51,349 nucleotides of DNA from Syntrophomonadaceae bacterium (GTDB lineage: Bacteria > Bacillota > Dethiobacteria > DTU022), in the NCBI GenBank assembly GCA_003552365.1, contig PUKR01000099.1, positions 1-51,349 of the forward strand. The letters run 5' to 3'. Below are positions 4,215 to 50,228 of this stretch, one piece after another (positions within the stretch are counted from its first letter, which is position 1; every line of letters begins with the position of its first letter). The position numbers and the translations under genes were made by a program. The notes under the pieces were generated by a model, which was given only the letters and a program-made list of their open reading frames with translations, made no database searches and was not told where the DNA came from.

Positions 4215-5426
4215 CTACTTCCAAACCATATCAGCAAGCTCAAGCGATTCCAGGTAATAAGACATAACCTCAACTTCGTCAAGCCCATATTTATCAGAAG
4301 CAATAGCAAAAGCATTTTCCCAGTTTCCTTTTTCATAAAGTAAAACCATATCCAGGATATCTCTAAAGGCACCGGGTTCCCCGCTTAGAGCGTCTTTGAT
4401 TTCCTCTGCCAGGGGCAGCTCTGACAAAACGCTTTCCATCGGTTGATCCAAAAAAGTATCTAGCAGGGAAAACATCCCGGTTAAAAAAAGGTCGGCGCTG
4501 CGATCATGCAGATCGGTTGCCCTGGCCATTGATTCACAGAACTTAGCCCTGGCTACAGCAGTTACCATCAGTTCATCGGGTTTATCATAACCGACATTAC
4601 GCAGGGCAACCAAAGAAGCCCATTTAATCATTTCTTTTTGACCCAGCAGGGCCATGGCCTGGCGAATAGAACGAATCGGGAAGCGGAGCGGAAAAGCGAC
4701 AGAATTTATAAACCGCAATAATTTATAAGATAGGGACGGGTCTTGTTTAATTAAAGTTTCCACCTGGTCAAAATCCATATCCGGTTTATATATTTCCTGC
4801 AGCAAACGGAGGTTTTGTAATTTAGCCCCCGGGACTTCTTTACCGGTTATTACGGTGGGCTCGCAGAAAAAAAAGCCCTGAAAGAAATCATAACCATTTG
4901 CCATGGCATCCCCGTAATCTTTAACATTCTCCACTTTTTCAGCAATCAGCTTCACCTTGCTGTTTTTAAAGTAATTAACAATTTCTTCACGTTCCCGGGC
5001 CTCAGTTTCCTGGTAATCCACTTTAATAAAGTCGGCAATATCCACTAATTTTGTTGTTTCCGAACTGTGCACGTAGTCATCAAGGATAATCATGTACCCT
5101 TTTTTCTTAAGGGCCAAACAAGCTTGACAAGTTTCTTGTTCAAACCCATAATCCCGGGCTATTTCAATTGCGATCAAATCCCTGGGCAAAAGCAACGCTG
5201 TTTCATTCTTAATCAGCTGCTCGCTAAAGTTAATAAATGCCCTTTTTCGCCTGGTTAATTTATCCAGACCAAGATTTAAAAAACTATTAACAATGACCTC
5301 AGAAGTAGCCAGATCTCCGTCCGTGGTAGGATTGTAATTATGAGAGCCGGTTCGGTACAGTAATTCATAGGCATATACCTTTTGCCGTCGATCAAATATT
5401 GGTTGCCTGGCCACAAATACTTCCAA
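4215..5426 (-). CDS. EAL-domain + HDOD-domain protein (c-di-GMP-related signalling)
   Basis: 403-aa ORF, TTG start with SD GAGGAGG. The N-terminus VARQPIFDRRQKVYAYELLYR plus INFS, IKVD, AEKVE and FFQGFFF fit an EAL fold. The C-terminal half (SLSYKLLRFINS...LGQKEMIKWASLVAL) is HDOD-like. Confidence 0.8.
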   Translation of the reverse strand: MEVFVARQPIFDRRQKVYAYELLYRTGSHNYNPTTDGDLATSEVIVNSFLNLGLDKLTRRKRAFINFSEQLIKNETALLLPRDLIAIEIARDYGFEQETCQACLALKKKGYMIILDDYVHSSETTKLVDIADFIKVDYQETEAREREEIVNYFKNSKVKLIAEKVENVKDYGDAMANGYDFFQGFFFCEPTVITGKEVPGAKLQNLRLLQEIYKPDMDFDQVETLIKQDPSLSYKLLRFINSVAFPLRFPIRSIRQAMALLGQKEMIKWASLVALRNVGYDKPDELMVTAVARAKFCESMARATDLHDRSADLFLTGMFSLLDTFLDQPMESVLSELPLAEEIKDALSGEPGAFRDILDMVLLYEKGNWENAFAIASDKYGLDEVEVMSYYLESLELADMVWK

Positions 5427-5700: not shown

Positions 5701-5991
5701 TTAAACACCACCGCGACGATCTGCTTCCATAATAAAAGCATAAATTGCCGCAACTGCTTCATAAAGTTCACGGGGCACTTCTTCACCGAGTTGAAGATTA
5801 CTCAGCACTTTAACCAGGGCAGTATCTTCGACTATGGGGATACTGTTTTCACTGGCCAGCTTGATAATATTGTCTGCAAGCCAGCCACGACCGCTGGCTG
5901 AAACACTGGGCGCTTCATTTTTTCCCGGGTCATATTTTAGGGCAACCGCCCGGCGTATTTCATTGATAGTTTTCTTGTGATTATCTTCCAA
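5701..5991 (-). CDS. FlhB C-terminal-domain-like protein (EscU/YscU/HrcU-family stand-alone domain, YlqH-like)
   Basis: AVALKYDPGKNEAPSVSASGRGWLADNIIKLASENSIPIVEDTALVKVLSNLQLGEEVPRELYEAVAAIYAFI matches the post-NPTH part of FlhB (compare the window's own FlhB: VVAKGVEVLAQKIREIAGENEVPVVENPPVARVLW...IPMELYQAVAEIMALVY). I set the start at TTG 5989-5991, 8 nt after SD AAAGGAG. The ORF track extends to 6075. Confidence 0.8.
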   Translation of the reverse strand: MEDNHKKTINEIRRAVALKYDPGKNEAPSVSASGRGWLADNIIKLASENSIPIVEDTALVKVLSNLQLGEEVPRELYEAVAAIYAFIMEADRRGGV

Positions 5992-6004
5992 GTAAGATGC
6001 TCCT

Positions 6005-6718
6005 TTAAGCCCTGGCATTAAGACCAAATCCACCCTGGTGGAGTATTTCCACCGCTTTTTTCCGCAAGTTGCCAACCGACCACTGCAGGGGGACAGCCGT
6101 ATTATTATCTTCTCCTCCGGCCTCTTTAACCAGGCGCCTTGCTTCTTTTTCTAACGCTTTCCCCGCCTTTTGCGATTCTACCACGAACCGGCATTCCAGC
6201 CTTTTACCTGCATAGCTATAAAAGTAAACCAGCACCAGCCCAAAATTTTCTGTGTCTAAAAACAGCTCCATCAGCGGGTCCGGCTGGGCATGTGACCTTT
6301 CACGTTTATTTCGGGGAGGAATAAACCGAACCAGGGCAGGCGACGACCGGTATCTATTTGCTGCTCCGGGGAAAAGGCCAAACAGCAGTGGTTCGCTGAA
6401 ATCGGCCCGGTTGATAAAAGCGTTACTTTCTGTTGTGGCAGACCCCGGCAAACGAGCCATGATCCGGTAATGAGGCCGTCCCTCTTTTGTCCCATTATAG
6501 TTTAAAAGCAGTGTTTCTCCGGGAACTACCCTGGCATTTAAATGAGCCGTAAAATTTCCTCCCTCCCAGCGCAGCACAGCGGCATCACCTTTGAGGGCAG
6601 TAACTTTGGCTACCAGCGATTCGGGCATTTTTGAACGGCCCTGTCCGGTAGATTTACCAGCAGTTAATTGTTTCAGCACCGGATCCTGAAATATTGCACT
6701 TAAAATTCTGCTATCCAA
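6005..6718 (-). CDS. hypothetical protein with weak FliK C-terminal (Flg_hook)-like segment
   Basis: 237-aa ORF, TTG start 6 nt after SD GAGGAGAG. The segment MELFLDTENFGLVLVYFYSYAGKRLECRFVVESQKAGKALEKEARRLVKEA aligns without gaps to the window's FliK segment MRMTLHPPELGELTIRVFSRQGQLSASILTESPMVREILEGSIAELRQRL. The pattern of L, G, S, G, ES, LE and L residues is shared. Confidence 0.45.
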   Translation of the reverse strand: MDSRILSAIFQDPVLKQLTAGKSTGQGRSKMPESLVAKVTALKGDAAVLRWEGGNFTAHLNARVVPGETLLLNYNGTKEGRPHYRIMARLPGSATTESNAFINRADFSEPLLFGLFPGAANRYRSSPALVRFIPPRNKRERSHAQPDPLMELFLDTENFGLVLVYFYSYAGKRLECRFVVESQKAGKALEKEARRLVKEAGGEDNNTAVPLQWSVGNLRKKAVEILHQGGFGLNARA

Positions 6719-6764: not shown

Positions 6765-7589
6765 TTAGTATACTGTTATCTCCAGGAGATAAAGCAGGGA
6801 GCTTACCACCTGGTGGTGAAAATCGATCCTTTCCTCCATGGGCATTTTCGTTACTGTCTCCACAATCAATGCTTCATATCCGCTTGCGTTAACAGCATTA
6901 ATTAATGTTCCCGTGGTTCCGCCACGCAAGATAAGAAAATGATGCTCCTCGTTAATTATGGTCCTGTTAACCGCCGTTTTTAATTCCTGCACTATGTCCA
7001 GGGAATCCGCACCGCGGGGGTAAATGAAGGTTTGTCCCAGAGAACCGGGCACTTTCCTCTCAAAATTTGAGGCTTCGTGAAGGTCGATTACCCAGTCAGG
7101 TTCAAATTCTTGAATAACTGAAAAGATAACTGAAGCCATCACCTCAGTTCCTACCCCGTTGGCATTACCCGGAAAAGAACGGTTTAAATCAAGGCCATCC
7201 TGCGGGGCGCTCCTGGTTCTTTCAGCTATCGCAGGTTCATTAGCTCTTGGCAACAGCAGCAGAGTGCCCCGATCAATAGCCCAGCTGGTCATTTCACTCA
7301 CTGCTTTAAAGCCTGCCGGTTCATTGCCATGAATGCCGCCGATAACCATAACTGTAGGGCCTTCATTCGGGGAAGAAATCTTGTAAAGAAGCGTTTCCCA
7401 CTCTGTAGTTTCCCGCAACACCCTTTCATTCCGGACAGCTGTTATTTCAGTTGCGGTTCCAACATTATTCCCTTCATGACCTTGTCGAAAGCGCGGTGAC
7501 GTGTTTGATATCTCCCCGGTTATCGTCAACAGAAAGATTGCAAGGGCAAGTAAATATACAATTGCTGACAGCCTGTGTTTTCCGAACAT
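6765..7589 (-). CDS. secreted/membrane-anchored zinc peptidase of the M14-like succinylglutamate desuccinylase/aspartoacylase (AstE/AspA) family
   Basis: 274-aa ORF with SD GGAGGG. It has an N-terminal hydrophobic signal/anchor (LSAIVYLLALAIFLL), the HxxE zinc motif VIGGIHGNEPAG, and a later VIDLHEA. Confidence 0.7.
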   Translation of the reverse strand: MFGKHRLSAIVYLLALAIFLLTITGEISNTSPRFRQGHEGNNVGTATEITAVRNERVLRETTEWETLLYKISSPNEGPTVMVIGGIHGNEPAGFKAVSEMTSWAIDRGTLLLLPRANEPAIAERTRSAPQDGLDLNRSFPGNANGVGTEVMASVIFSVIQEFEPDWVIDLHEASNFERKVPGSLGQTFIYPRGADSLDIVQELKTAVNRTIINEEHHFLILRGGTTGTLINAVNASGYEALIVETVTKMPMEERIDFHHQVVSSLLYLLEITVY

Positions 7590-7638
7590 AATAACCCTCC
7601 ACTGTCATTATCGGCAGCTTTGAGAAGATTTACAGGCC

Positions 7639-12601: not shown

Positions 12602-14380
12602 TTATAAGCCGTAGCTCTCAATCACATCTTCATACTGGATTTCAGTAATTCTAACTCCAAGCTGATCATTAATCATCACTACCTCACCCCGGGCCAGCAG
12701 TTTATCGTTGGCTAAAATTTCTACCGGATCATTCACATTGCAATCAAGATCGACAATACCGCCTTTATCCATAGAAAACAACTTGCCGAGGGGGACTCTT
12801 GCCGAGCCAAGGACAACTACAATATCCATGGGGATATCTTTAACCAGGTTTAGCCTCTGCATATCTACGCCCAAATCTTCAGCTCCGGCACTACCCGGGG
12901 TGTAGTCTGTCGTTTGTTCTTCTTTATTGTTTTCCTGGCTAAAAGCTGTTTCAGGAAACCCGGAGTCTTCATCGATGAGCTGTTCAGAATCCTCTTCTTT
13001 CCTTAAAGGTTCTTCAACGGCAACTTCCGGTTCGCTTTCCCCATAAAGCAGGTAACCGGCCATTTTCTTTGCAAAACTAACCGGGATAACCTGGATCATG
13101 ATGCTGTCGATTATATCGGCCACTTTCATTTTAAATTCAACATGAACCACTTTTTCTTCACTATCAAAGTTGTATAGTTCTGGCACCTCGTTTGCCAGGT
13201 CGATCGATTCCAGGCTGGGAGTGGAAATTTCAATGGTCCGCTGAAAAAGTTCCGACATTGAAGTTGACATCGACCCCATCATCTGGTTCATCGCTTCCTG
13301 GACTGCACTGTGTTCTATTTCGCTTAACGGTCCCTCCTTGGTTCCCGGGTCCTCGCCCATCATTAAAGCAGCAATTATGATCGCATCGCTTTCCTTGATC
13401 ATTAAAACATTACTGCCTTCGAGTCCGGAAGTATACTCTACTTTTACCAGGAGACAGGGCAATGGATATTGCTCCTGGATTTCACTTACTTTGCGAACAT
13501 CCAGGTTGGGAGTTGTAATGTCAACAGGCTTTTCCAGGATTGTTGAGAGCGCGGTAGCAGAAGCACCAAGCGATATGTTGCCTACTTCCGCGATGGTGTC
13601 TTTTTCCAAATCACTTAACTCTTCGGGCTGCTTATCACCGGTATTGATCACCACTGTTTCAATTTCTGAATGATCATCCTCACCGGGATCCGGGTCTCCT
13701 GTTTCTTCTTCATCATCCTGGCCAGGCGAATCAACTACCGCCTCTGGTCCGGGAGCAGGTTGTTCGTCCGAACCAGAGGCTGTCTCTGCTCCGCCCGATA
13801 GCAGGTGGGCACACATCTCCCGGGCAAAATCAACCGGAATAACCTGGACCATAATACTGTCTATAAAATCGTCCACCTTCATTGAAAACTGAACATGAAC
13901 CAGCTTACCATCGGCTGATAATGTTTCCTGAGCAGGAATGTCATCTGCCAGGTTTATCCGCTCGACTTTTGGCGTAGAAATTTCAATAGTGCGCTGAAAC
14001 AACTCAGACATTGATGTAGCCATTGATCCCATCATCTGGTTCATTGCTTCCTGAACCGCGCTAAGCTCAATTTCGTTTAAAGGTCCTTCCTTATCAGCAG
14101 GATCGTCGCCCATCATCAGGGCTGCGATAACCACGGCATCCTCTTCTTTGATCAAAAGGATATTGCTGCCACGCAGACCGGATATATACTCGACCTCGAC
14201 CAAGAGACAGGGAAGTGGGTACTTTTGCCTGAGCTCACTGCCTTCAACTATTGACAACTGGGGCGTAGTAATATCAACAAACTTATCCAGTATAGTCGAA
14301 AGCGCGGTAGCAGAAGCGCCTAAAGATATATTTCCCACCTCAGCCAGGGTGTCTTTTTCAAGAGCACTTAATTCTTCCAC
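12602..14380 (-). CDS. fliY: flagellar motor switch phosphatase FliY with two tandem CheC-like domains + C-terminal FliN/SpoA domain
   Basis: 592-aa ORF, GTG start. aa 3-196 and aa 253-446 are two copies of a CheC-like module, each with two [D/S]xxxExxN-x22-P motifs. The C-terminus (IVVVLGSARVPLGKLFSMDKGGIVDLD...PVEILANDKLLARGEVVMINDQLGVRITEI) is a FliN/SpoA domain. Confidence 0.9.
   Translation of the reverse strand: MEELSALEKDTLAEVGNISLGASATALSTILDKFVDITTPQLSIVEGSELRQKYPLPCLLVEVEYISGLRGSNILLIKEEDAVVIAALMMGDDPADKEGPLNEIELSAVQEAMNQMMGSMATSMSELFQRTIEISTPKVERINLADDIPAQETLSADGKLVHVQFSMKVDDFIDSIMVQVIPVDFAREMCAHLLSGGAETASGSDEQPAPGPEAVVDSPGQDDEEETGDPDPGEDDHSEIETVVINTGDKQPEELSDLEKDTIAEVGNISLGASATALSTILEKPVDITTPNLDVRKVSEIQEQYPLPCLLVKVEYTSGLEGSNVLMIKESDAIIIAALMMGEDPGTKEGPLSEIEHSAVQEAMNQMMGSMSTSMSELFQRTIEISTPSLESIDLANEVPELYNFDSEEKVVHVEFKMKVADIIDSIMIQVIPVSFAKKMAGYLLYGESEPEVAVEEPLRKEEDSEQLIDEDSGFPETAFSQENNKEEQTTDYTPGSAGAEDLGVDMQRLNLVKDIPMDIVVVLGSARVPLGKLFSMDKGGIVDLDCNVNDPVEILANDKLLARGEVVMINDQLGVRITEIQYEDVIESYGL
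13043..13624 (-). repeat. intragenic tandem duplication in fliY, copy 2 (CheC-like module, aa 253-446)
   Basis: See copy 1. An acidic Pro/Asp/Glu-rich linker (aa about 197-252) separates the two copies. Confidence 0.85.
13793..14374 (-). repeat. intragenic tandem duplication in fliY, copy 1 (CheC-like module, aa 3-196)
   Basis: My manual alignment to copy 2 gives about 137/194 identical residues, with a period of 250 aa (750 nt). Confidence 0.85.
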
Positions 14381-14404: not shown

Positions 14405-14749
14405 CTAGCGTAAATTTTCAATCCGTTCTTCGGGTTTGATAATGTTCTTCAGGCGAATTCCAAACGTTTCGTCAATAGTAATTACTTCTCCCTCGGCAAA
14501 TGGTTTGCCGTTTACCACGAGTTCAACCGGTTCGTCAATCATTTTATCCAGTTCGATCACTGTTCCCACGGTTAAATTTAACAATTGCCCGATGGTTCTT
14601 TCTGCATTCCCAAGGCGAACTGAAACTTCAAGCGGAAAGTCGAGCACCAGTTTAAGCTTCAAGTCCATTTTAAGCTCATCTTCCCGGTTCGAACCCTCAC
14701 TGAGCAGAGCATTCATTTCCTCTTCAGATAAAATATGTCGGTTATCCAT
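14405..14749 (-). CDS. short FliN/SpoA-domain switch protein with N-terminal LSxEEMNALL (CheY-P-binding-like) peptide
   Basis: The SpoA domain reads LEVSVRLGNAERTIGQLLNLTVGTVIELDKMIDEPVELVVNGKPFAEGEVITIDETFGIRLKNI. I set the start at ATG 14747-14749 (MDNRHILSEEEMNALLSE), which overlaps the fliM stop by 8 nt. The ORF track extends to 14806. Confidence 0.8.
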   Translation of the reverse strand: MDNRHILSEEEMNALLSEGSNREDELKMDLKLKLVLDFPLEVSVRLGNAERTIGQLLNLTVGTVIELDKMIDEPVELVVNGKPFAEGEVITIDETFGIRLKNIIKPEERIENLR

Positions 14750-15758
14750 AGTTTTCCCCCGTGCTATAGTTATCTTTATCTTTTTCCTCAGAAATTTTAT
14801 CCACAATTTTAACTCCCAGGCGTTTACCCCGGGTCCCCGGCTGGACCTTAAAAATAGGCCTGCCCTCTACTAAAAGATCCAAAGATTCACCACGTCGACG
14901 GCGCAGGGGCAGGACATCACCTTCCTGGAGCTGGAGAAAATCATCCAGGGTTATCCTTGATTTCCCCAGGACTACTTTAATTTCAGCTTCAGGACTTTGG
15001 AGGCATTTTTCAATATCGCCGGGCTTACTTTTAGATGCACTTTGTTGAAACTGGTTAAACCATTGCTGGGCGGTTAGGCTGGAAAGGATCCGCTCAAGCC
15101 CCATGAAAGGAAAGCAGAGGTTGACAAAACCCTGGACATTTTGCACGGTTGCAGAAAAGGTGACCAGGGCCACCGTTTCATTGGAAGCAATTACCTGGTT
15201 AAACTGGGGATTGGTATCCATACTTTCAATCTGCGGCTCCAACTGGGCGATACCTTTCCAGGCATACCCGAGGTTGTCTAAGAACTTTTCATTGATTTGC
15301 CTCATAACCGAAATTTCTATTTCCGTAAGCTCCCTAATCTTGGCCGGTTGCCTGCCCTCACCGCCAAAAAGGAGATCTATAATGGTAAAGACAAAAGTAG
15401 GATTGGTTTCCAGCATGGCAACGCCCATATCCCTGGACATATTGAATATCGTCATCAGGGTAGGCACAGGCAGTGAAAACACAAATTCTTCATATGATAC
15501 CTGAGCAACAGACACCACATTTAACTTGACCGGCACCCGCAAAAAAGATGTAAGGAAATTACCCATAATACGGGCATAATTTTCATGGATAATCTGCAGG
15601 GTCCGAAGCTGTTCCTTGGTAAACTTGGTCGGTTTTCTAAAATCGTAAGTCTGGTATTCAGTGGAAGTTTCCCGGGTTTCTTCCTCACCAAGGTCACCGC
15701 TGGATATTGCATTGATCAATGAATCAATTTCTGACTGGGTTAAAGCATCTTTGCCCAT
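14742..15758 (-). CDS. fliM: flagellar motor switch protein FliM
   Basis: 338-aa ORF with SD GGGAGGTG. It has the N-terminal CheY-P-binding motif LTQSEIDSLINAI, a YDFRKP motif, a CheC-like middle domain and a C-terminal SpoA-like region. Confidence 0.95.
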   Translation of the reverse strand: MGKDALTQSEIDSLINAISSGDLGEEETRETSTEYQTYDFRKPTKFTKEQLRTLQIIHENYARIMGNFLTSFLRVPVKLNVVSVAQVSYEEFVFSLPVPTLMTIFNMSRDMGVAMLETNPTFVFTIIDLLFGGEGRQPAKIRELTEIEISVMRQINEKFLDNLGYAWKGIAQLEPQIESMDTNPQFNQVIASNETVALVTFSATVQNVQGFVNLCFPFMGLERILSSLTAQQWFNQFQQSASKSKPGDIEKCLQSPEAEIKVVLGKSRITLDDFLQLQEGDVLPLRRRRGESLDLLVEGRPIFKVQPGTRGKRLGVKIVDKISEEKDKDNYSTGENYG

Positions 15759-18781: not shown

Positions 18782-19546
18782 TTACTCTTTATTGCGCATT
18801 GATTCAAACAGATAGTTTATAATGCGCTCCCGAACGTTTTCGTTTATATTGATAAAGCTAACCCCGGCCCGGTATCGTTTCCACCTTCCTATGCTAATGG
18901 TCACAACCCTGACAACCTTTCCTTCCAGGAGAAAAACATGGTTCTCTTCTCCATTAAGCTTGATCTTAATTAAAAGATGATCGTTTCTTTTTAACCGCTC
19001 GGAGACAACCATTCGCAACCCGCCCCCGGACAGGTCCAGGGTAAAAGCAGCTCTTCCCGGCATTATGCTTTCCAATTCCCTGGTGCGTTCCTCCATCCAG
19101 AGTGGGTCTTCCCAAAACCCGGGAGTGCGACACGAACTAAAATATTGAGTGCTGTTTTTTATAGCCGGGTCATCCAGGCACCAATAACGCAATTCGAAGT
19201 GACAGGGAACCCGGATATGACCCCGCCGCTGGTGCCGCTCTACCGTGTAAGGTTTTTTCACCAGGTAATGCTTTTCCACGCTGTTCCGGTTAACTCCGAT
19301 CACTAAAGAATTAAACAGATAAACAGCTTCATCTTTTACCAGGCAAAACTGCCAGCTGCTGTTATGAGGCATGGGTAGTTCTTTACCGCCGGAAACCGGT
19401 TCACATATGGTTATAATCTCCTTACCCGTTTCCCTGATATGGCAGGTATAATATTCTTGATCCCGCTCGTTCAAAACCTGGAGCCGATCACCAACTGTTA
19501 AACTTTTATTCATTTCAGCCGCTTTTCTTCTTCCGAACAGCTTCAT
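18782..19546 (-). CDS. PilZ-domain c-di-GMP-binding protein (YcgR-like flagellar brake candidate)
   Basis: 254-aa ORF. It has a YcgR-N-like N-terminal half and a PilZ signature, RRGHIR (RxxxR) plus DLSGGG (DxSxxG). The start ATG overlaps the flhG stop (ATGA). Confidence 0.82.
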   Translation of the reverse strand: MKLFGRRKAAEMNKSLTVGDRLQVLNERDQEYYTCHIRETGKEIITICEPVSGGKELPMPHNSSWQFCLVKDEAVYLFNSLVIGVNRNSVEKHYLVKKPYTVERHQRRGHIRVPCHFELRYWCLDDPAIKNSTQYFSSCRTPGFWEDPLWMEERTRELESIMPGRAAFTLDLSGGGLRMVVSERLKRNDHLLIKIKLNGEENHVFLLEGKVVRVVTISIGRWKRYRAGVSFININENVRERIINYLFESMRNKE

Positions 19547-26633: not shown

Positions 26634-26996
26634 TTATTCCCGGCTATCGTCCTTTTTAAAATTTTGCAGGATCCTGGAAAAAGAACCCCTTATATTAACT
26701 GGCTGTACAGCCAGAGAATCTTCGGCATACTGCAATTCTTTCCAGTCAAACGTCTTGAGCAGGTTTACATTATTTTGGGCGGTCCCGACGAGATAAACCT
26801 CTTTACCTACTTGAATTAGTGTCAGGGAACTGCCGCTCTTATGATCTAAGGGAACCCGCTCTAAAACTTTCATGTATCCACCATTTACTCCACGGTAAAC
26901 CGAGCGCAGGCCATAGCGGATCGCCAGGTATGCCAGGATTACAATTAAAATCAGAAACCCCATCGACTGTAAAATCAGCCCGTAATTACCCATCAT
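26634..26996 (-). CDS. fliO: flagellar biosynthesis protein FliO/FliZ
   Basis: 120-aa ORF with a single N-terminal TM helix. KVLERVPLDHKSGSSLTLIQVGKEVYLVG is typical of FliO. The start overlaps the fliN stop (TAATG). Confidence 0.75.
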   Translation of the reverse strand: MMGNYGLILQSMGFLILIVILAYLAIRYGLRSVYRGVNGGYMKVLERVPLDHKSGSSLTLIQVGKEVYLVGTAQNNVNLLKTFDWKELQYAEDSLAVQPVNIRGSFSRILQNFKKDDSRE

Positions 26997-27418
26997 TAAG
27001 CCTCTCTTCCCGTTTCAGATCCATCATGATCCTCATCATCTTCAACCAGCGAGGTAATGCGTAATCCAAAACGGTCGTTAATTACAACAATTTCCCCGTG
27101 CGCAAAAGGAGTTTCATTAACTAAAATAAGCACTTTTTCATCGGCCACCCGGTTCAACTGGAGCACTGAGCCTTCTTCCAGGTTGATCAAATCTCGAACC
27201 TTCAGGGTTACTTTTCCCAGCTCGGCACTAACGTTTAAACCAACCCCGTGAAACTCCGGGGCAATGCCCCTCCTGGGCGAAACCGGAGCGCTATCGGGCA
27301 GGGGTTGAAATACCACCTTCTTGATATCAGGTTTCCCCTGATCTTCTTGATTATCCCCCCAGCTATCGTCTTCACCGGTGAAAGGTTTTTGTTCATCCCA
27401 AAAACTGCCAGACATCAT
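26996..27418 (-). CDS. fliN: flagellar motor switch protein FliN (SpoA domain)
   Basis: 140-aa ORF with SD AAGGAG. It has an acidic N-terminus followed by LNVSAELGKVTLKVRDLINLEEGSVLQLNRVADEKVLILVNETPFAHGEIVVINDRFGLRITSL. Confidence 0.85.
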   Translation of the reverse strand: MMSGSFWDEQKPFTGEDDSWGDNQEDQGKPDIKKVVFQPLPDSAPVSPRRGIAPEFHGVGLNVSAELGKVTLKVRDLINLEEGSVLQLNRVADEKVLILVNETPFAHGEIVVINDRFGLRITSLVEDDEDHDGSETGREA

Positions 27419-39841: not shown

Positions 39842-40309
39842 CTAGCGGCCTATTTCTAGAGCTTTGGCATAAATGCTTTTAGCAGTATTCACAGCGGTTG
39901 AATTTGCTTCGTAAGAGCGCTGGGCCGTGATCATATCGGTCATTTCTTTGGCCAGCTCAATGTTGGGATATTCAACATAGCCGTCTTCCCCGGCATCGGG
40001 ATGTTCAGGGTCATAAACCGCCATCGGTTCCTCGTCATCAGCGATAATTCGGTCAACCCTGACTCCGTGTCCTTCTACTTTTCCAGGGATCCTTTCACTG
40101 GGAACAAAAGGCTGTACGATTCGCCTTCTCCCCTGTTCTTCAGCCCTGGCCAGATCCTCGGCAAAAGAAATGGTGCGCCGTCGGTAGGGACCGCCTTCTT
40201 CGGTGCGGGTAGTATTCATATTGGCAATATTGCCGGCGATGGTGTCCAACCGGGTTTTTTCTGCAGTCAGGGCTGAACCGGAAATACGAAAATCAGGAAA
40301 CATGGTCAC
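39842..40309 (-). CDS. flgC: flagellar basal-body rod protein FlgC
   Basis: 155-aa ORF. It has ISGSALTAEKTRLDTIAGNIANMNTTR and C-terminal YPNIELAKEMTDMITAQRSYEAN. The GTG start sits 8 nt after GGGAGG. Confidence 0.95.
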   Translation of the reverse strand: MTMFPDFRISGSALTAEKTRLDTIAGNIANMNTTRTEEGGPYRRRTISFAEDLARAEEQGRRRIVQPFVPSERIPGKVEGHGVRVDRIIADDEEPMAVYDPEHPDAGEDGYVEYPNIELAKEMTDMITAQRSYEANSTAVNTAKSIYAKALEIGR

Positions 40310-40311
40310 GC

Positions 40312-40716
40312 TTAACGCCTCCCTTCATTGATTACAAAACGCCAGTTATCAAAGCGAGTATTTAACTTTTGTGTATATGAATTGTAGCGAAGCTGGTTGC
40401 TGACCATATTGAGCATTTCCCGCTCCAGATCAACGTTGTTGCCGTCAATCCGGCGGATAGTAGAGGTGTCTTTTTTGATTTCAGGTTCGATGTCCCGATC
40501 GGGCATTTGGGGGAAATGCCTCTCATCGGTCCGGGCAAGCGGGGAATCAATTCTTTCCCGGGCTTCCTGCAGCTGTTTTTCAAAGGAAACATCGCTGCGC
40601 TGAAAACCCGGCGTGTTTAAGTTGGCAAGGTTATTGGCTGTCACCTGCTGGCGCAGGGTCGATGCATCCATCCCCTTAATTATGCCGGATGTGACTTTAT
40701 CCCGGAAAATTGTCAT
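40312..40716 (-). CDS. flgB: flagellar basal-body rod protein FlgB
   Basis: MTIFRDKV...QQVTANNLANLNTPGFQRSDVSF...DGNNVDLEREMLNMVSNQLRYN. I set the start at ATG 40714-40716, after GGGGGTG. The ORF track extends to 40761, through the leader terminator. Confidence 0.95.
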   Translation of the reverse strand: MTIFRDKVTSGIIKGMDASTLRQQVTANNLANLNTPGFQRSDVSFEKQLQEARERIDSPLARTDERHFPQMPDRDIEPEIKKDTSTIRRIDGNNVDLEREMLNMVSNQLRYNSYTQKLNTRFDNWRFVINEGRR

Positions 40717-40730
40717 CTTAACACCCCCGT

Positions 40731-40775
40731 TAACAAGTAAAAGAGAGGCTGCCAGTTGCAAAGCTGCCTCTCTTT
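40731..40775 (-). terminator. intrinsic terminator in the flgB leader (riboswitch expression platform)
   Basis: The minus strand reads AAAGAGAGGC-a-GC / loop UUUGCAACUG / GC-a-GCCUCUCUUU, followed by U ACUUGUU. That is a 10+2 bp stem ending in a U-run, 15 nt upstream of the flgB SD. Confidence 0.7.
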
Positions 40776-40831
40776 AGAAAACGGGGTTATCCCTTTTGAA
40801 GTTGGGCTATTCCCTTTTACTTCCTATAAGA

Positions 40832-40913
40832 GACTGGCAGCCTGGCAATCCGGCTTAACTGCGGATCCACGGCTTTGCGCCCCCATATCACTATGGGTTA
40901 GCCTTTATCAGTC
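40832..40913 (-). promoter_or_regulatory. c-di-GMP-I (GEMM-I-like) riboswitch aptamer in the flgB operon leader
   Basis: The 82-nt minus-strand sequence is GACUGAUAAAGGCUAACCCAUAGUGAUAUGGGGGCGCAAAGCCGUGGAUCCGCAGUUAAGCCGGAUUGCCAGGCUGCCAGUC. It has a closing helix GACU/AGUC + GGC/GCC, a GNRA-capped hairpin CCCAUA-GUGA-UAUGGG, the GCGCAAAGCC core and a second hairpin GGAUCCG/CGGAUU. The layout matches the V. cholerae Vc2 aptamer as I recall it (..GGGCAAACC-hairpin(GAAA)-GGGACGCAAAGCC..). Confidence 0.75.
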
Positions 40914-40941
40914 TTTTAGTCTTTCTCAATATTGGATTTAC

Positions 40942-40971
40942 ATTATAGCAAAATGATAACCACCAGGTCAA
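40942..40971 (-). promoter_or_regulatory. sigma-A-type promoter of the flgB operon
   Basis: On the minus strand, TTGACC (40966-40971), an 18-nt spacer, then TGcTATAAT (-10 at 40942-40947, extended TG). About 50 nt of almost pure A/T lies upstream (40972-41030), which looks like an UP element. Confidence 0.7.
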
Positions 40972-41237
40972 GGAAAATATAAAATAAAATTTAAATTGAT
41001 AATAATAATTTAAAAATTGACCTTTGTTTTTTACATTCGCTGCCTGTTTTGTAATTCCTTCTTAGATCAAAATATTTATTTAATACTTTTAAGTGTTAGC
41101 AATTTATATTAGTTGAGCAGAGGATTTGAAGATATTTTGCCGGGTAGCAAAGCAGCGGTGAAATAGAAAGTTTAGAGGTTATCTGTCAGAGTATCCAGGG
41201 TAATAAGCAAGCGTCAATCGGTACAGGATTTTTTAAA

Positions 41238-41654
41238 TTAGCATCTTTTTTTGAGAAACAGCTCCTGGTGTCCTTGCTTTATACCTTTATAAGCTTTCAA
41301 GGTTTGCCGGCCCCTTGCCAGCCTGTTTATAGTATTTCCGGATGTTTTTAAAGCTTCCTCCAGGCGGCGCCTGTTTTTTTCGCGGAAACCCTTAATTCCT
41401 TTTAATAAATGGGACAGTTTTTTAGATTGCTCAGCCGGTAATTCTTTTTTATCGGGAAGGTGAGTTTCCAGGTCGTTCAGTAATTTTTCTATCCTATCTC
41501 CATAATCTTGTAATTTTTGATCGTCAAGCTCCTCTATAGCCAAGCTTTCATTTTTTAAAGCATCATTCAGTTGATGAATAAGCTTTAATGTGTGGTTAAA
41601 ATTTTCCTGGGCTGGTTTTTTAGAGTTTTTCAAAAGACCACCGTTTCTCATCAT
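41238..41654 (-). CDS. hypothetical helical/charged protein downstream of fliW (possible flagellar chaperone or regulator)
   Basis: 138-aa ORF, predicted all-helical and Lys/Glu/Leu-rich (LIHQLNDALKNESLAIEELDDQKLQDYGDRIEKLLNDLE...). It is not CsrA-like. The SD is weak, so the start is uncertain. Confidence 0.5.
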   Translation of the reverse strand: MMRNGGLLKNSKKPAQENFNHTLKLIHQLNDALKNESLAIEELDDQKLQDYGDRIEKLLNDLETHLPDKKELPAEQSKKLSHLLKGIKGFREKNRRRLEEALKTSGNTINRLARGRQTLKAYKGIKQGHQELFLKKRC

Positions 41655-41688
41655 TTTTAATAATCAACTCTATCCTGAAAAATAACCA

Positions 41689-42120
41689 TTAGTTTTCCGG
41701 CCCTGCTACAGTGTCTAACGGCACTCTCATGTCCTCACAGCGGTGAGGCACTATCAACTGTTTGCCTCTTTTTTGGACCACATTGATCAGGATCGGTGCG
41801 GCAAGGTTGGTGTAAAGCCTGGCATCATCTACAGTAACGGTCGTAAAAATTATGAGATCCCGCTCTTTTTTGAGCATAAGATCACGCCGATCATCTCGCT
41901 GCAAATCTACACTGTAGCGAGGGAAAAATGGCAACGGATCAACCAGGATCATCCCGATCGAGGGATCATCAGCTGCTATCAGCATGGCAAAAAGCCTGTT
42001 TCCGGGAATTGGTTCAATTAAAAAGCGGCGGTACAATTCCAGGCCCGGGATACCACGGGGGAATATAAATTCTACAAGCTTCCTTTGACTGGTATCTACG
42101 GCTGATTGTTCAATTGTCAT
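41689..42120 (-). CDS. fliW: flagellar assembly factor FliW
   Basis: 143-aa ORF with SD AGGAGG. IEFIFPRGIPGLE...FLIEPIPGNRLFAMLIAADDP...LVDPLPFFPRYSVD...LIIFTTVTV is typical of FliW. Confidence 0.9.
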   Translation of the reverse strand: MTIEQSAVDTSQRKLVEFIFPRGIPGLELYRRFLIEPIPGNRLFAMLIAADDPSIGMILVDPLPFFPRYSVDLQRDDRRDLMLKKERDLIIFTTVTVDDARLYTNLAAPILINVVQKRGKQLIVPHRCEDMRVPLDTVAGPEN

Positions 42121-42148
42121 ATTTTATGACCTCCTGTTCTAAACACTC

Positions 42149-44101
42149 TTATCGCATGTAATCCACCAGGGTTGGCTGCAGCATTTTCTGGGCTGTAGAG
42201 AGAGCAGCGTGATAGGCATTCTCCTGCATTGTAAATTCTGTGATTACATAAGCCAGGTCGATATCTTCGATTTCCGAGCGAATTTCACGCAGTGATATGT
42301 TTTCGCTAAAGAGAGTGTCATACATTGCTTCCACCCGGTTCGATCGCGCTCCAACCTGGGCTAATTGTTCCAGGAAATGATCCACCGATTTGTCCATTTT
42401 ATCCAGGGCTTCGCCACCAAGCGCTTCACGATCATCGTTCATCAAGGCATTATATACTTCAAAAACTGCTTCAAAAACTTCTTCATTTTCGCCAAATACT
42501 TTTTTCCCGCTTAAATTCATAATCACCTGCTGGTGGGGGCTGATATCCTGGCTCCGCTCCTTGTCATCACCGTAATATACCGGAAATCCTTCACTATCGT
42601 AGGAAAAGGTTAGGGCTGCCTCTTCACCGGTATCTGCAAACTGATTATAAGATAGTGAAATGCTGCCATCATGAACTTCACCCTTGTTCGGAGAACGATC
42701 AAAAGTATCCAGGCTTTGATAATGCAGTTCGATATCCGAATCATTCAGGGCCTCTTCGGCAAAAACGTAGGTGATGCCAGATCCCCCTCCCCGGTGTTCA
42801 CCGCTGAGGTGTGCCTGATCGTAAGTAACTCCTTCTTCCCCGGAAGGTTTGAAATTCAATATTGCTTTGTCGCCCATCTTTAGATCGCCGGCATCAAGCG
42901 CATCTAATTGATCCAGGCCTTCAATGTTGAATTCGATATCTCCCAGGTTAACAGTTTGGCTTTCCTCACCCTCTTCACCATAGGTAAGGGTAAAACTGCC
43001 CTCGTGGTTTTCATAGGTTCCATCCAGGGCATACTGATGAGAGTTATAATGGTAGGTAACTTCACCGGTACTTTCATCAACACCGGTTACCTCCAGCTGT
43101 ACGGAAGCGCTGAAACCGGAAGCGACAGTTACGGAGTCACCATCTTCGGCGCCAGCGAGCTGATCCATATCGATCCTAAAATCATCTCCTAAAACTGATT
43201 CATTTCCGCCCTCAGGCTCAAGGACGCCATTTTCATCAACCGTTCCTTCTTCACCGCTTACACTTTCAACATAGTTCCATTGTTCCGTTTCCCCATCATA
43301 ATTAAGCTTTAAGGCAAAGCCTTGATCGGGCTCATTTTCTATAAAATTATTGTTATCGTAATCGATAGTCAGATCGGAACCTTCCTGCGGCTCTGCTTTA
43401 ACCATAACTCCACTGTTGATTTCTCCCGCCGTCTCCTCAAAATTATCATTGCCGATTATGTTCATAGCGCTGCCCTGTAAATACTGCCCGCTAAAGCTGA
43501 CAGCAGCTTCTTGATCAGCCTCCAATTCTTCCCTTACTTGATCGAGCCGGTAATCACCATTTTGCATGCCCTCTGCAATTAAATCATAAATTTCCGCTTC
43601 ATTTTCTTCCCCGTAACGGATCCCGCTATCCTCATTAACTTCAACATGATACATATTTTCGCGAACATAAGGAGAATTAAAAGTTTGATGTCCGCCAAAT
43701 ATATAAAGCCCGTTTGATTCTGTATTGGCAACTCCGATCATATGTTCAGTAAATTCAAGCACCTCGGGAGCTATTGCCCGACGATCTTCTGCAGTAAGGC
43801 TGTCATTAGCTCCGTAAATACATAACTCACGGATTCTTTGTAAAACATCAAGCCCGTTTTGCAATCCCCCTTCAGTGTTATCAAGCCAGCTTTTAGACTG
43901 ATTCATGTTCAACCGGAACTGCTCATTACGGTCTATCGAAGCACTATAACTCATAACCCGGCCCACACCTACCGGTTCCTGGGACGGGCGGGTAAACTTT
44001 TTCCCTGTTGACAATTGATCTCCATAGCGTTCAAGCCGTTGAAGATTGTTTTGAAGATTATGGTTTATGTTATGGGATACCATCTTATGGGTAATACGCA
44101 T
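42149..44101 (-). CDS. flgL: flagellar hook-associated protein 3 FlgL (flagellin-fold termini, about 400-aa acidic insert)
   Basis: 650-aa ORF with SD AGGAGG. It has an N-terminal flagellin-like helix (MRITHKMVSHNINHNLQNNLQRLERYGDQLSTGKKFTRPSQEP) and a C-terminal one (GARSNRVEAMYDTLFSENISLREIRSEIEDIDLAYVITEFTMQENAYHAALS). It sits directly after flgK. Confidence 0.88.
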   Translation of the reverse strand: MRITHKMVSHNINHNLQNNLQRLERYGDQLSTGKKFTRPSQEPVGVGRVMSYSASIDRNEQFRLNMNQSKSWLDNTEGGLQNGLDVLQRIRELCIYGANDSLTAEDRRAIAPEVLEFTEHMIGVANTESNGLYIFGGHQTFNSPYVRENMYHVEVNEDSGIRYGEENEAEIYDLIAEGMQNGDYRLDQVREELEADQEAAVSFSGQYLQGSAMNIIGNDNFEETAGEINSGVMVKAEPQEGSDLTIDYDNNNFIENEPDQGFALKLNYDGETEQWNYVESVSGEEGTVDENGVLEPEGGNESVLGDDFRIDMDQLAGAEDGDSVTVASGFSASVQLEVTGVDESTGEVTYHYNSHQYALDGTYENHEGSFTLTYGEEGEESQTVNLGDIEFNIEGLDQLDALDAGDLKMGDKAILNFKPSGEEGVTYDQAHLSGEHRGGGSGITYVFAEEALNDSDIELHYQSLDTFDRSPNKGEVHDGSISLSYNQFADTGEEAALTFSYDSEGFPVYYGDDKERSQDISPHQQVIMNLSGKKVFGENEEVFEAVFEVYNALMNDDREALGGEALDKMDKSVDHFLEQLAQVGARSNRVEAMYDTLFSENISLREIRSEIEDIDLAYVITEFTMQENAYHAALSTAQKMLQPTLVDYMR

Positions 44102-48382: not shown

Positions 48383-48643
48383 TCAATGGCGCGGGTTTTT
48401 CTGCACCATTTTAACAGCGTCAAGCACTATACCTAAAATATCCAGGTCCTGCTGCATTGCTAAAAGTTCGGCCCGGCCATAAGTTTCTCCTTTGCTTGAA
48501 ACTACATAGCGCGGTGGAATTTTATTCAGCGCTATAGCGCTGATATCAAACCGGCACTGCTGGCAGGTGCAGAATTCATGGTATTTCCTTACGTCATCAA
48601 TGGTATTGGAAACGACCTGTTCCATGAGGTTTTTAAGTTCCAT
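48383..48643 (-). CDS. ComFB-family (late competence development protein ComFB-like) small Cys-containing protein
   Basis: MELKNLMEQVVSNTIDDV...FCTCQQCRFDISAIALNKIPPRYVV...LDAVKMV is the typical ComFB layout. I set the start at ATG 48641-48643, 8 nt after GAGGAGAG. Confidence 0.78.
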   Translation of the reverse strand: MELKNLMEQVVSNTIDDVRKYHEFCTCQQCRFDISAIALNKIPPRYVVSSKGETYGRAELLAMQQDLDILGIVLDAVKMVQKNPRH

Positions 48644-48677
48644 AACGATATCTCTCCTCAATTGATGAGATCATACA

Positions 48678-49799: not shown

Positions 49800-50009
49800 T
49801 GCTCGCACCTTTTTTTAAAGATTTAGCTGTTATTTTTATCGGCACAACAACAAACCGTTTAAGTGAAGTAACTTTTAAAATATTTTCACACACATTAAGT
49901 TTATAACATATTTTACTAACCGGCAAATATATCGAATAGACCTTTTCCAAACAAAATATTTATAGTAAAATCGCGATATTTATCGATAATGGCAGCTTAA
50001 GCTAATGCC

Positions 50010-50044
50010 AAAAAAATCCCTTTACCCTTAACGGGAAAAGAGAT
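50010..50044 (-). terminator. intrinsic terminator following the second c-di-GMP aptamer
   Basis: The minus strand reads AUCUCUUUUCCC-GUUAA-GGGUAAAGGGAU followed by U7, with 10 of 12 stem positions paired. Confidence 0.65.
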
Positions 50045-50157
50045 CGACAAAGATAAGTTACTAACCATGAGCCGGCAGCCAGGCTATCATAGTCTGTCTT
50101 AACCTTAGACCCTTAGCTTTGCGCCCCTGCCTTTCGACAGGTTTGCCCTTGTCGATC
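50042..50157 (-). promoter_or_regulatory. c-di-GMP-I (GEMM-I-like) riboswitch aptamer upstream of the HD-GYP/ComFB/FapA genes
   Basis: The minus strand reads GAUCGACAAGGGCAAACCUGUCGAAAGGCAGGGGCGCAAAGCUAAGGGUCUAAGGUUAAGACAGACUAUGAUAGCCUGGCUGCC...UUGUCGAUC. It has GGGCAAACC, a GAAA-capped hairpin CCUGUC/GGCAGG and GGCGCAAAGC, close to Vc2 as I recall it. A 9-bp outer helix pairs 50149-50157 with 50042-50050. Confidence 0.78.
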
Positions 50158-50182
50158 AGGTTATTAGGATATATTCAGCTTG

Positions 50183-50211
50183 AGTATAATCAAGTATACT
50201 TGTGATGTCAA
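50183..50211 (-). promoter_or_regulatory. sigma-A-type promoter driving the second riboswitch
   Basis: On the minus strand, TTGACA (50206-50211), 17 nt, then TATACT (50183-50188). It starts 18 nt after the MORN gene stop. Confidence 0.7.
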
Positions 50212-50228
50212 TTGTTAACGGTATACCA

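Follow-up and report, generated by a model that had tools for sequence, protein, structure and literature searches.

We analyzed a 51,349-nt stretch of DNA from a Syntrophomonadaceae bacterium (contig PUKR01000099.1; hereafter the window, within which all coordinates are counted) and found that the 5' leader of flgB, read on the minus strand between 40600 and 41200, very probably contains a class-I cyclic di-GMP (c-di-GMP) riboswitch that acts as a transcriptional OFF switch. This assignment is computational, and the Rfam matches, the conservation and covariation in eight orthologous leaders and the folding energetics together support as the best reading the OFF switch that an original prediction had proposed for this leader. 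All of the sequence features listed in that prediction are present, at or within 1-2 nt of their predicted positions. The element is a further, ordinary instance of a mechanism for which proof already exists in Clostridioides difficile, consistent with the earlier judgment that it was probably not new as a class. The flagellar and chemotaxis genes behind the leader would most likely be shut off at high c-di-GMP.

The aptamer of the flgB leader (84 nt; 40831-40914, minus strand) is identified by an Rfam match, by covariation and by comparison with the consensus. Scanning the whole window with cmscan at the gathering thresholds gave two matches, both on the minus strand and both to members of clan CL00126, at 40832-40912 and 50070-50156. 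The match at 40832-40912 is full-length, with 60.6 bits and an E-value of 6.5e-12, and together with a contiguous P1 helix (AGACUG at 40914-40909 pairing with CAGUCU at 40836-40831) it agrees with the 82-nt GEMM-I segment originally placed at 40832-40913. P2 spans 40902-40877 and is closed by a GUGA tetraloop of the GNRA type, as in the GUGA-capped hairpin described before, and P3 spans 40874-40839. The earlier description of the closing helix is right in its GACU/AGUC part, which belongs to P1, and wrong in its GGC/GCC part, which is absent from the consensus structure: there, G40902-C40901 pairs with G40878-C40877, and G40903 and C40837 are ligand-contact positions instead. The Vc2-equivalent columns were mapped from the Rfam structure line and a reconstructed Vc2 numbering, and they give a predicted ligand-contact triad of G40903, A40876 and C40837, the equivalents of G20, A47 and C92 in Vc2. 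P2 of Vc2, which we take to run from G21 to C46, has the same length as P2 here (26 nt), and its next nucleotide is A47. G20, A47 and C92 are the residues of Vc2 that contact c-di-GMP (PMC4744006). C40879 and G40846 are the candidates for the conserved inter-helix Watson-Crick pair (C44-G83 in Vc2), a tertiary contact that is predicted from the sequence.

A search with FlgB against the GTDB species genomes identified eight close relatives with 66-83% identity, all of them Syntrophomonadaceae or Bacillota metagenome-assembled genomes (MAGs). The genes of the window are also present in the assemblies SRR490150 and SRR490134, and its closest named relatives are MAGs of Syntrophomonadaceae and of a Dethiobacter sp. 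We compared nine leaders, that of the window and those of the eight orthologs (L001-L008), and evaluated the covariation on an alignment of ten aptamers. An aptamer of clan CL00126 is located 100-190 nt upstream of flgB in all eight orthologs, and promoter, aptamer and terminator are retained in every one of these leaders. The leader alignment shows that the aptamer is highly conserved and the expression platform divergent. Among the ten aptamers, 97.3% of the cells of the 26 base pairs in P1, P2 and P3 are paired, and nine pairs have changed on both sides. None of 500 shuffles reaches the observed value, and slid registers are paired in 29-42%. The A and C contacts and the inter-helix C/G candidates are invariant across the orthologs, and the contact G is present in nine of the ten aligned aptamers. 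The aptamer of L008 (~2010; alignment column 14) has C for G at the G20-equivalent position (AAACGC) and is otherwise intact; this substitution may alter affinity or specificity in that genome.

Downstream of the aptamer, folding and an inverted repeat (I1) reveal an intrinsic terminator hairpin at 40740-40775 on the minus strand, followed by a U-rich tail to ~40731. Its 5' arm (AAAGAGAGGCAGC, 40775-40763) and 3' arm (GGCAGCCUCUCUUU, 40753-40740) enclose a loop at 40762-40754, with one 1x1 A.A mismatch in the stem. The hairpin has a folding energy of about -19 to -20 kcal/mol (z -3.45), a value that none of 200 shuffles equals, confirming the terminator and U-run that had been placed there; the tail after the three stem U's, UACUUGUUAA, is modest. 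The terminator sits 23 nt before the flgB ATG (40716), and the gap between the stem end and the flgB Shine-Dalgarno (SD) sequence is ~11 nt, not the 15 nt given at first. An equivalent hairpin with a U-tail is found in all nine leaders, with folding energies between -11 and -21 kcal/mol, 5-8 U among the 10 nt that follow and a distance of 23-42 nt to the start codon. The terminator stems differ among the leaders, reading GAGAGACCGUC in L002 and L004, GAGGCAGCC in L005-L007 and GGGCAGCC in L008.

The aptamer and the terminator are connected by a switching strand, strand A (AGGCUGCCAGUCUCUU; 40828-40843, minus strand), which consists of the P3 3' strand, the ligand-pairing C, the P1 3' strand and three further nucleotides, and which has two alternative pairing partners, one inside the aptamer and the other the terminator 5' arm. 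The duplex between strand A and the terminator 5' arm has an RNAduplex energy of -19.9 kcal/mol, compared to a shuffle mean of -9.0 kcal/mol, and none of 500 shuffles is as good. The 6+6 bp antiterminator originally proposed is real, and in the window fold it extends to 8+6+6 bp with small bulges, C40837 included. All 13 nucleotides of the terminator 5' arm pair with strand A in the minimum-energy fold of the truncated window transcript. In transcripts truncated immediately behind the terminator 5' arm, all nine leaders adopt the antiterminator as their minimum-energy fold in the absence of ligand; none of them retains P1 (0/5 intact), and the antiterminator beats the best P1-containing fold by 3.4-17 kcal/mol. 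Enforcing P1 in the window fold, as a mimic of bound ligand, leads to formation of the terminator. In six of the nine leaders, the antiterminator duplex is significantly better than the shuffles (no more than 12 of 500 as good). Its downstream part changes co-ordinately between leaders, with UCUCUU/AAGAGA in the window, UCUAUAAUAA/UUGUUAUAGA in L003 and GGU/ACC in L005-L006. The bulge of the antiterminator is on the other strand in L005-L006, and L007 keeps the aptamer-side bulge with GUCU/AAGA.

These results suggest a model for the switch. Transcription would start at ~40935 from a strong sigma-A-type promoter, and the 84-nt aptamer (40914-40831) would fold first. Once c-di-GMP is bound by G40903, A40876 and C40837, P1 and P3 would hold the 3' strand AGGCUGCCAGUCUCUU, and the hairpin at 40775-40740 with its U-tail could form and end transcription, yielding an RNA of ~200 nt that stops 10-20 nt short of the flgB ribosome-binding site. 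If no ligand is bound, the freshly transcribed terminator 5' arm, AAAGAGAGGCAGCU, would invade the aptamer and pair with the 3' strand, including the ligand-pairing C. The resulting antiterminator of ~20 bp would allow RNA polymerase to continue into flgB and the genes behind it.

Several observations weigh against this model. In the full-length thermodynamic folds, both states lie within about 4 kcal/mol of each other; the switching direction therefore depends on co-transcriptional kinetics, and the folds used here are thermodynamic. The antiterminator duplex is weak in L002, L004 and L005, where 41-135 of 500 shuffles are as good, and the window U-tract, UUUUACUUGUU, is the weakest of the nine leaders. 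A simple terminator scan did not call the hairpin at 40740-40775, because of its A.A mismatch and 8-nt loop. Finally, the top Rfam model for the aptamer is a GGC variant, whose ligand was not found in the searchable literature.

In the window minimum-energy fold, CCCCGUU at 40785-40779 can pair with AACGGGG at 40731-40725, overlapping the SD sequence, and one of the 12 class-I switches of C. difficile acts as an ON switch (PMC3649979). Both facts could be accommodated by an ON switch or a mainly translational one, in which the ligand favors read-through or exposes the ribosome-binding site, but we consider this very unlikely. The terminator hairpin is distinct from the folded aptamer and can exist alongside it, which is the geometry of an OFF switch; an ON switch would require the aptamer 3' strand within the terminator, as in pilM. 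Moreover, no sequence other than the aptamer 3' strand competes strongly for the terminator 5' arm. The CCCCGUU/AACGGGG pairing is not kept in the orthologs, and SD sequestration as a conserved feature was rejected.

The transcriptional OFF switch favored here is predicted to respond to c-di-GMP, and the Rfam family assignment bears directly on this point. A significant match to RF01051 had been expected; the match to clan CL00126 was obtained (60.6 bits), but the top model is RF03167 (c-di-GMP-I-GGC), whose gathering score of 59 is exceeded by a margin of 1.6 bits. cmscan keeps the best clan member, and the RF01051 score for the window is masked by clan competition. Two more matches of the same clan exceeded their own gathering scores and were suppressed by this competition, presumably RF01051 at both window aptamers. 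The printed consensus is ...GGGACGCGAAgCc... for RF03167 and ...gGACGCAAAgCc... for RF01051, and the two models differ (ACGCGAAgC in RF03167 and ACGCAAAgC in RF01051) at the first nucleotide after the P2 closing pairs. The window reads GCGCAAAGCC, with A at 40876 as in RF01051, and cmscan flags a mismatch to the GGC model at this position. The defining G of the GGC variant is also missing elsewhere, with A in its place in both window aptamers and all eight orthologs, and thus in all 10 aligned aptamers. RF01051 is the best model for five of the eight orthologous leaders, with 55-63 bits against a gathering score of 35, and RF03167 is the best model for three.

The rank of RF03167 in the window and in these three orthologs would fit an aptamer of the c-di-GMP-I-GGC type, or of another specificity variant such as a cyclic GMP-AMP (cGAMP)-type GEMM-I aptamer, that keeps the terminator logic but responds to some other ligand than c-di-GMP. 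This reading has even less probability than an ON switch, given the A at the distinguishing position, the score barely above the RF03167 threshold and the five orthologs of the same leader that fit RF01051 best. The mark of the cGAMP-type (GEMM-Ib) aptamers, A at the G20-equivalent position, which Kellenberger et al. and Nelson et al. in 2015 reportedly found to be typical of them, is likewise absent, the nucleotide at 40903 being G. The G20-equivalent position guides ligand selectivity (PMC9262584). With the canonical A at 40876 together with G40903 and C40837, c-di-GMP is therefore predicted as the ligand. We predict that the element is a canonical c-di-GMP-I aptamer and that its GGC label is an accident of clan competition; judged from these positions, the RF03167 match reflects overall sequence similarity, not a variant binding site. 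RF03167 is the top model for both window aptamers (60.6 and 72.7 bits), whereas the variant's G at the A47-equivalent position is A in both. This calls for caution in annotation, as clan competition in Rfam labels an RNA 'c-di-GMP-I-GGC' despite a canonical binding-site nucleotide.

Least probable of all is an inactive aptamer relic, with the hairpin merely a partial attenuator or stabilizing structure and flgB controlled at the promoter only: Vc1 of Vibrio cholerae shows that conserved key residues do not guarantee tight binding (PMC4744006), but all three modules are kept in nine genomes whose FlgB proteins are only 66-83% identical, the aptamer helices carry compensatory changes, and the antiterminator strands change co-ordinately between leaders.

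The near-consensus sigma-A-type promoter (40942-40971, minus strand) matches 11 of 12 consensus positions and has an extended -10 TG; it comprises the -35 element TTGACC at 40971-40966, an 18-nt spacer and the extended -10 element TGcTATAAT at 40950-40942, just as had been predicted. A promoter scan of 40000-42500 shows that this is the sole 11/12 match with an extended -10, and in the leader alignment CTTGACC and TGyTATAAT are kept in every orthologous leader covering these positions. The transcription start is accordingly placed at ~40935 as a prediction. An A/T-rich tract (40972-41020, minus strand) abuts the -35 element upstream and may function like an UP element. Originally described as about 50 nt of almost pure A/T, it holds ~46 nt, of which 44 are A or T, and the orthologous leaders likewise have A/T-rich DNA 5' of their promoters. 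The entire leader is ~220 nt long and ends with the flgB ribosome-binding site and start codon (40714-40728, minus strand; GGGGGUG at 40728-40722 and ATG at 40716-40714). The start codon aligns with those of the orthologs, and the protein of the open reading frame (ORF) starting at this ATG matches Flg_bb_rod in Pfam, identifying it as flgB.

Between aptamer and terminator lies a spacer (40776-40830, minus strand) that forms two small hairpins in the folds, GAAGU..ACUUC around GGG/CCC, and GGGAUAACCC. The ends of the spacer lengthen the antiterminator helix, with 40826-40821 pairing to 40781-40776 in the folds. The GGG-loop-CCC hairpin recurs in most orthologs, and the first spacer hairpin is an insertion common only to the window and L001. 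On the minus strand, 40811-40822 (AAGUAAAAGGGA, just 3' of the aptamer) can also form 12 bp with 40735-40746, the terminator 3' arm and U-tract (UCUCUUUUACUU), and a similar A-rich/U-tract pairing is seen in the L001 fold. In sequence this rich in A and U, the pairing may have arisen by chance; alternatively, it may influence what becomes of the terminated or read-through RNA. In C. difficile, the flgB 5' untranslated region (UTR) also contains an invertible flagellar switch. An inverted-repeat search detected no repeats flanking the leader of the window besides the terminator (I1), and a phase-variable switch of the C. difficile kind was rejected for this reason.

We compared the flgB leader with known class-I switches. 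Cd1 (Cdi-1-3) is an experimentally proven class-I OFF switch in the flgB 5' UTR of C. difficile (PMC6366702; PMC3649979), and it has a P-A-T-H arrangement: aptamer and terminator can exist side by side, in competition with an A-T antiterminator in which the ligand-pairing C is sequestered (PMC9262584). The folds of the window leader correspond to this arrangement. The original prediction had drawn the comparison with Cd1, and it is apt, as both elements are class-I aptamers in a flgB 5' UTR whose antiterminator sequesters the ligand-pairing C. In both cases, the aptamer is in the leader of an early flagellar flgB operon that also encodes the flagellar sigma factor, the promoter is of the sigma-A type, a separate intrinsic terminator lies downstream of the aptamer, the antiterminator pairs the aptamer 3' strand with the terminator 5' arm, and the logic is OFF, here in silico. 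The two systems differ in that the terminator here is 23 nt before the start codon in a leader of ~220 nt, whereas the C. difficile UTR is 496 nt with termination at ~160 nt. The cluster here is 33 kb and includes the che genes, compared to 23 kb for the C. difficile flgB operon, and the C. difficile switch is experimentally proven, while that of the window is predicted from its sequence. The Cd1 paradigm, early flagellar genes turned off by c-di-GMP through riboswitch-mediated attenuation, would be extended beyond C. difficile to uncultured Syntrophomonadaceae/Dethiobacter-like Bacillota, a lineage in which at least nine genomes keep promoter, aptamer, antiterminator and terminator together as a unit. 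The value of these leaders is that of a clean comparative set for the evolution of expression platforms and of an entry to a possible feedback loop of riboswitch, FliA and phosphodiesterase; they open no new question. With Vc2 of V. cholerae, the structural reference of RF01051, the aptamer shares the three helices, the GNRA tetraloop on P2, the G20/A47/C92 equivalents and the inter-helix C-G pair. It differs from Vc2 in sequence, host lineage and expression platform, and the receptor type for its GUGA tetraloop is probably different.

The leader precedes a co-directional flagellar and chemotaxis cluster of 33 kb (7639-40716, minus strand), which according to the Pfam matches is uninterrupted from flgB to cheR. 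In order, it contains flgB, flgC, fliE, fliF and fliG (rod and basal body); fliH, fliI, fliJ, fliK, flgD, a small flagellar ORF and flgE (export ATPase complex and hook); motA and motB (stators); fliL and a fliN-like gene; fliO, fliP, fliQ, fliR, flhB and flhA (export gate); flhF, flhG, a PilZ (YcgR-like) gene and fliA (placement and regulation); DUF6115, two flgG-like genes, fliM, fliN and fliY; and cheA, cheY, cheD, cheB and cheR (chemotaxis). The downstream content that had been expected (basal body, export apparatus, the stators motAB, fliA and the che genes) is thereby verified. The intergenic gaps within the cluster are 107 nt or shorter. Matches to internal terminators and sigma-70 promoters in the 33-kb cluster are no commoner than in shuffles, and none in the intergenic gaps is convincing. 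A single transcript across the 33 kb is plausible from this arrangement.

The original prediction regarded the unit as unusually long, but 33 kb is not exceptional compared to the 23 kb of C. difficile and the about 27 kb of the fla/che operon of Bacillus subtilis. The latter operon is driven by sigma-A and unites on a single strand the basal body, export, switch and che genes with that for the flagellar sigma factor. To our knowledge, no riboswitch is known at the B. subtilis fla/che operon, and c-di-GMP acts in B. subtilis post-translationally through a PilZ protein. The window differs from B. subtilis in having both a predicted leader riboswitch and a PilZ gene in the operon. This gene, with PilZ and PilZNR domains (YcgR-like), lies between flhG and fliA at 18782-19546 on the minus strand, and its product is likely a post-translational c-di-GMP input to the motor, beside the riboswitch in the leader. 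There are also additional partial paralogues: FliN-domain ORFs at 26996-27418 (minus strand) and 14405-14806, besides a FliY-like CheC-FliN fusion at 12602-14380, and a 124-aa ORF at 5701-6075 (minus strand) that matches only the C-terminal part of FlhB. At the distal end of the cluster, set off by a gap of 274 nt, the minus strand carries a gene with EAL and HDOD domains at 4215-5426.

The second aptamer of the c-di-GMP-I clan (50070-50156, minus strand; flanks 49990-50225) scores 72.7 bits with RF03167 as the best model, and has the canonical A at the GGC-variant position. It precedes an HD-GYP phosphodiesterase gene and lies 9 kb upstream of the flgB leader. Its own promoter reads TTGACA...TTATACT, and a hairpin at ~50010-50047 runs into seven U's. 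Of the relatives, only the closest one, L029, keeps the second riboswitch (880-968). In constrained folds and in the comparison with L029, the aptamer 5' strand pairs with UCUUUGUCGRUC, a conserved strand that shares 1-4 nt with the base of the terminator; this weakly suggests that the second riboswitch is also an OFF switch. Both signature motifs of the HD-GYP protein are present, HD as FLHDLGK and GYP as GAGYP. Relatives share the gene order HD-GYP, ComFB, FapA, in which the small ComFB-domain gene (48383-48661, minus strand, in the window; also in L029-L033) always stands between the other two, and this triad heads the late flagellar genes flgM, flgN, flgK, flgL and fliW.

The sigma-28/FliA-type sequence TAAA-N15-GCCGATA has four matches in the window, compared to 0.67 expected. 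One of them (49837-49861, minus strand) is directly before the HD-GYP ORF, ~150 nt past the terminator of the second riboswitch, and a CTTAA-N15/16-GCCGATA motif is common to the window, L029 and L031. Because fliA is inside the flgB unit that the first riboswitch would gate, the sigma-28 sites suggest a feedback link. With its riboswitches, its PilZ gene and its EAL-HDOD gene, the locus looks like a dense c-di-GMP control node. It is conceivable, though rather unlikely, that the flgB riboswitch belongs, as one arm, to a c-di-GMP circuit of several tiers that is restricted to this locus and in which an OFF-controlled 33-kb unit with fliA and a PilZ brake is combined with an HD-GYP gene behind a second riboswitch and a FliA-type promoter. 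If the second switch were also OFF, low c-di-GMP would give FliA and read-through, more phosphodiesterase and a still lower level of c-di-GMP, and such a double positive feedback would make the decision between motile and sessile life bistable. Another sigma-28-type match (7609-7632, minus strand) is located just after cheR, before a peptidase-like ORF at 6765-7589.

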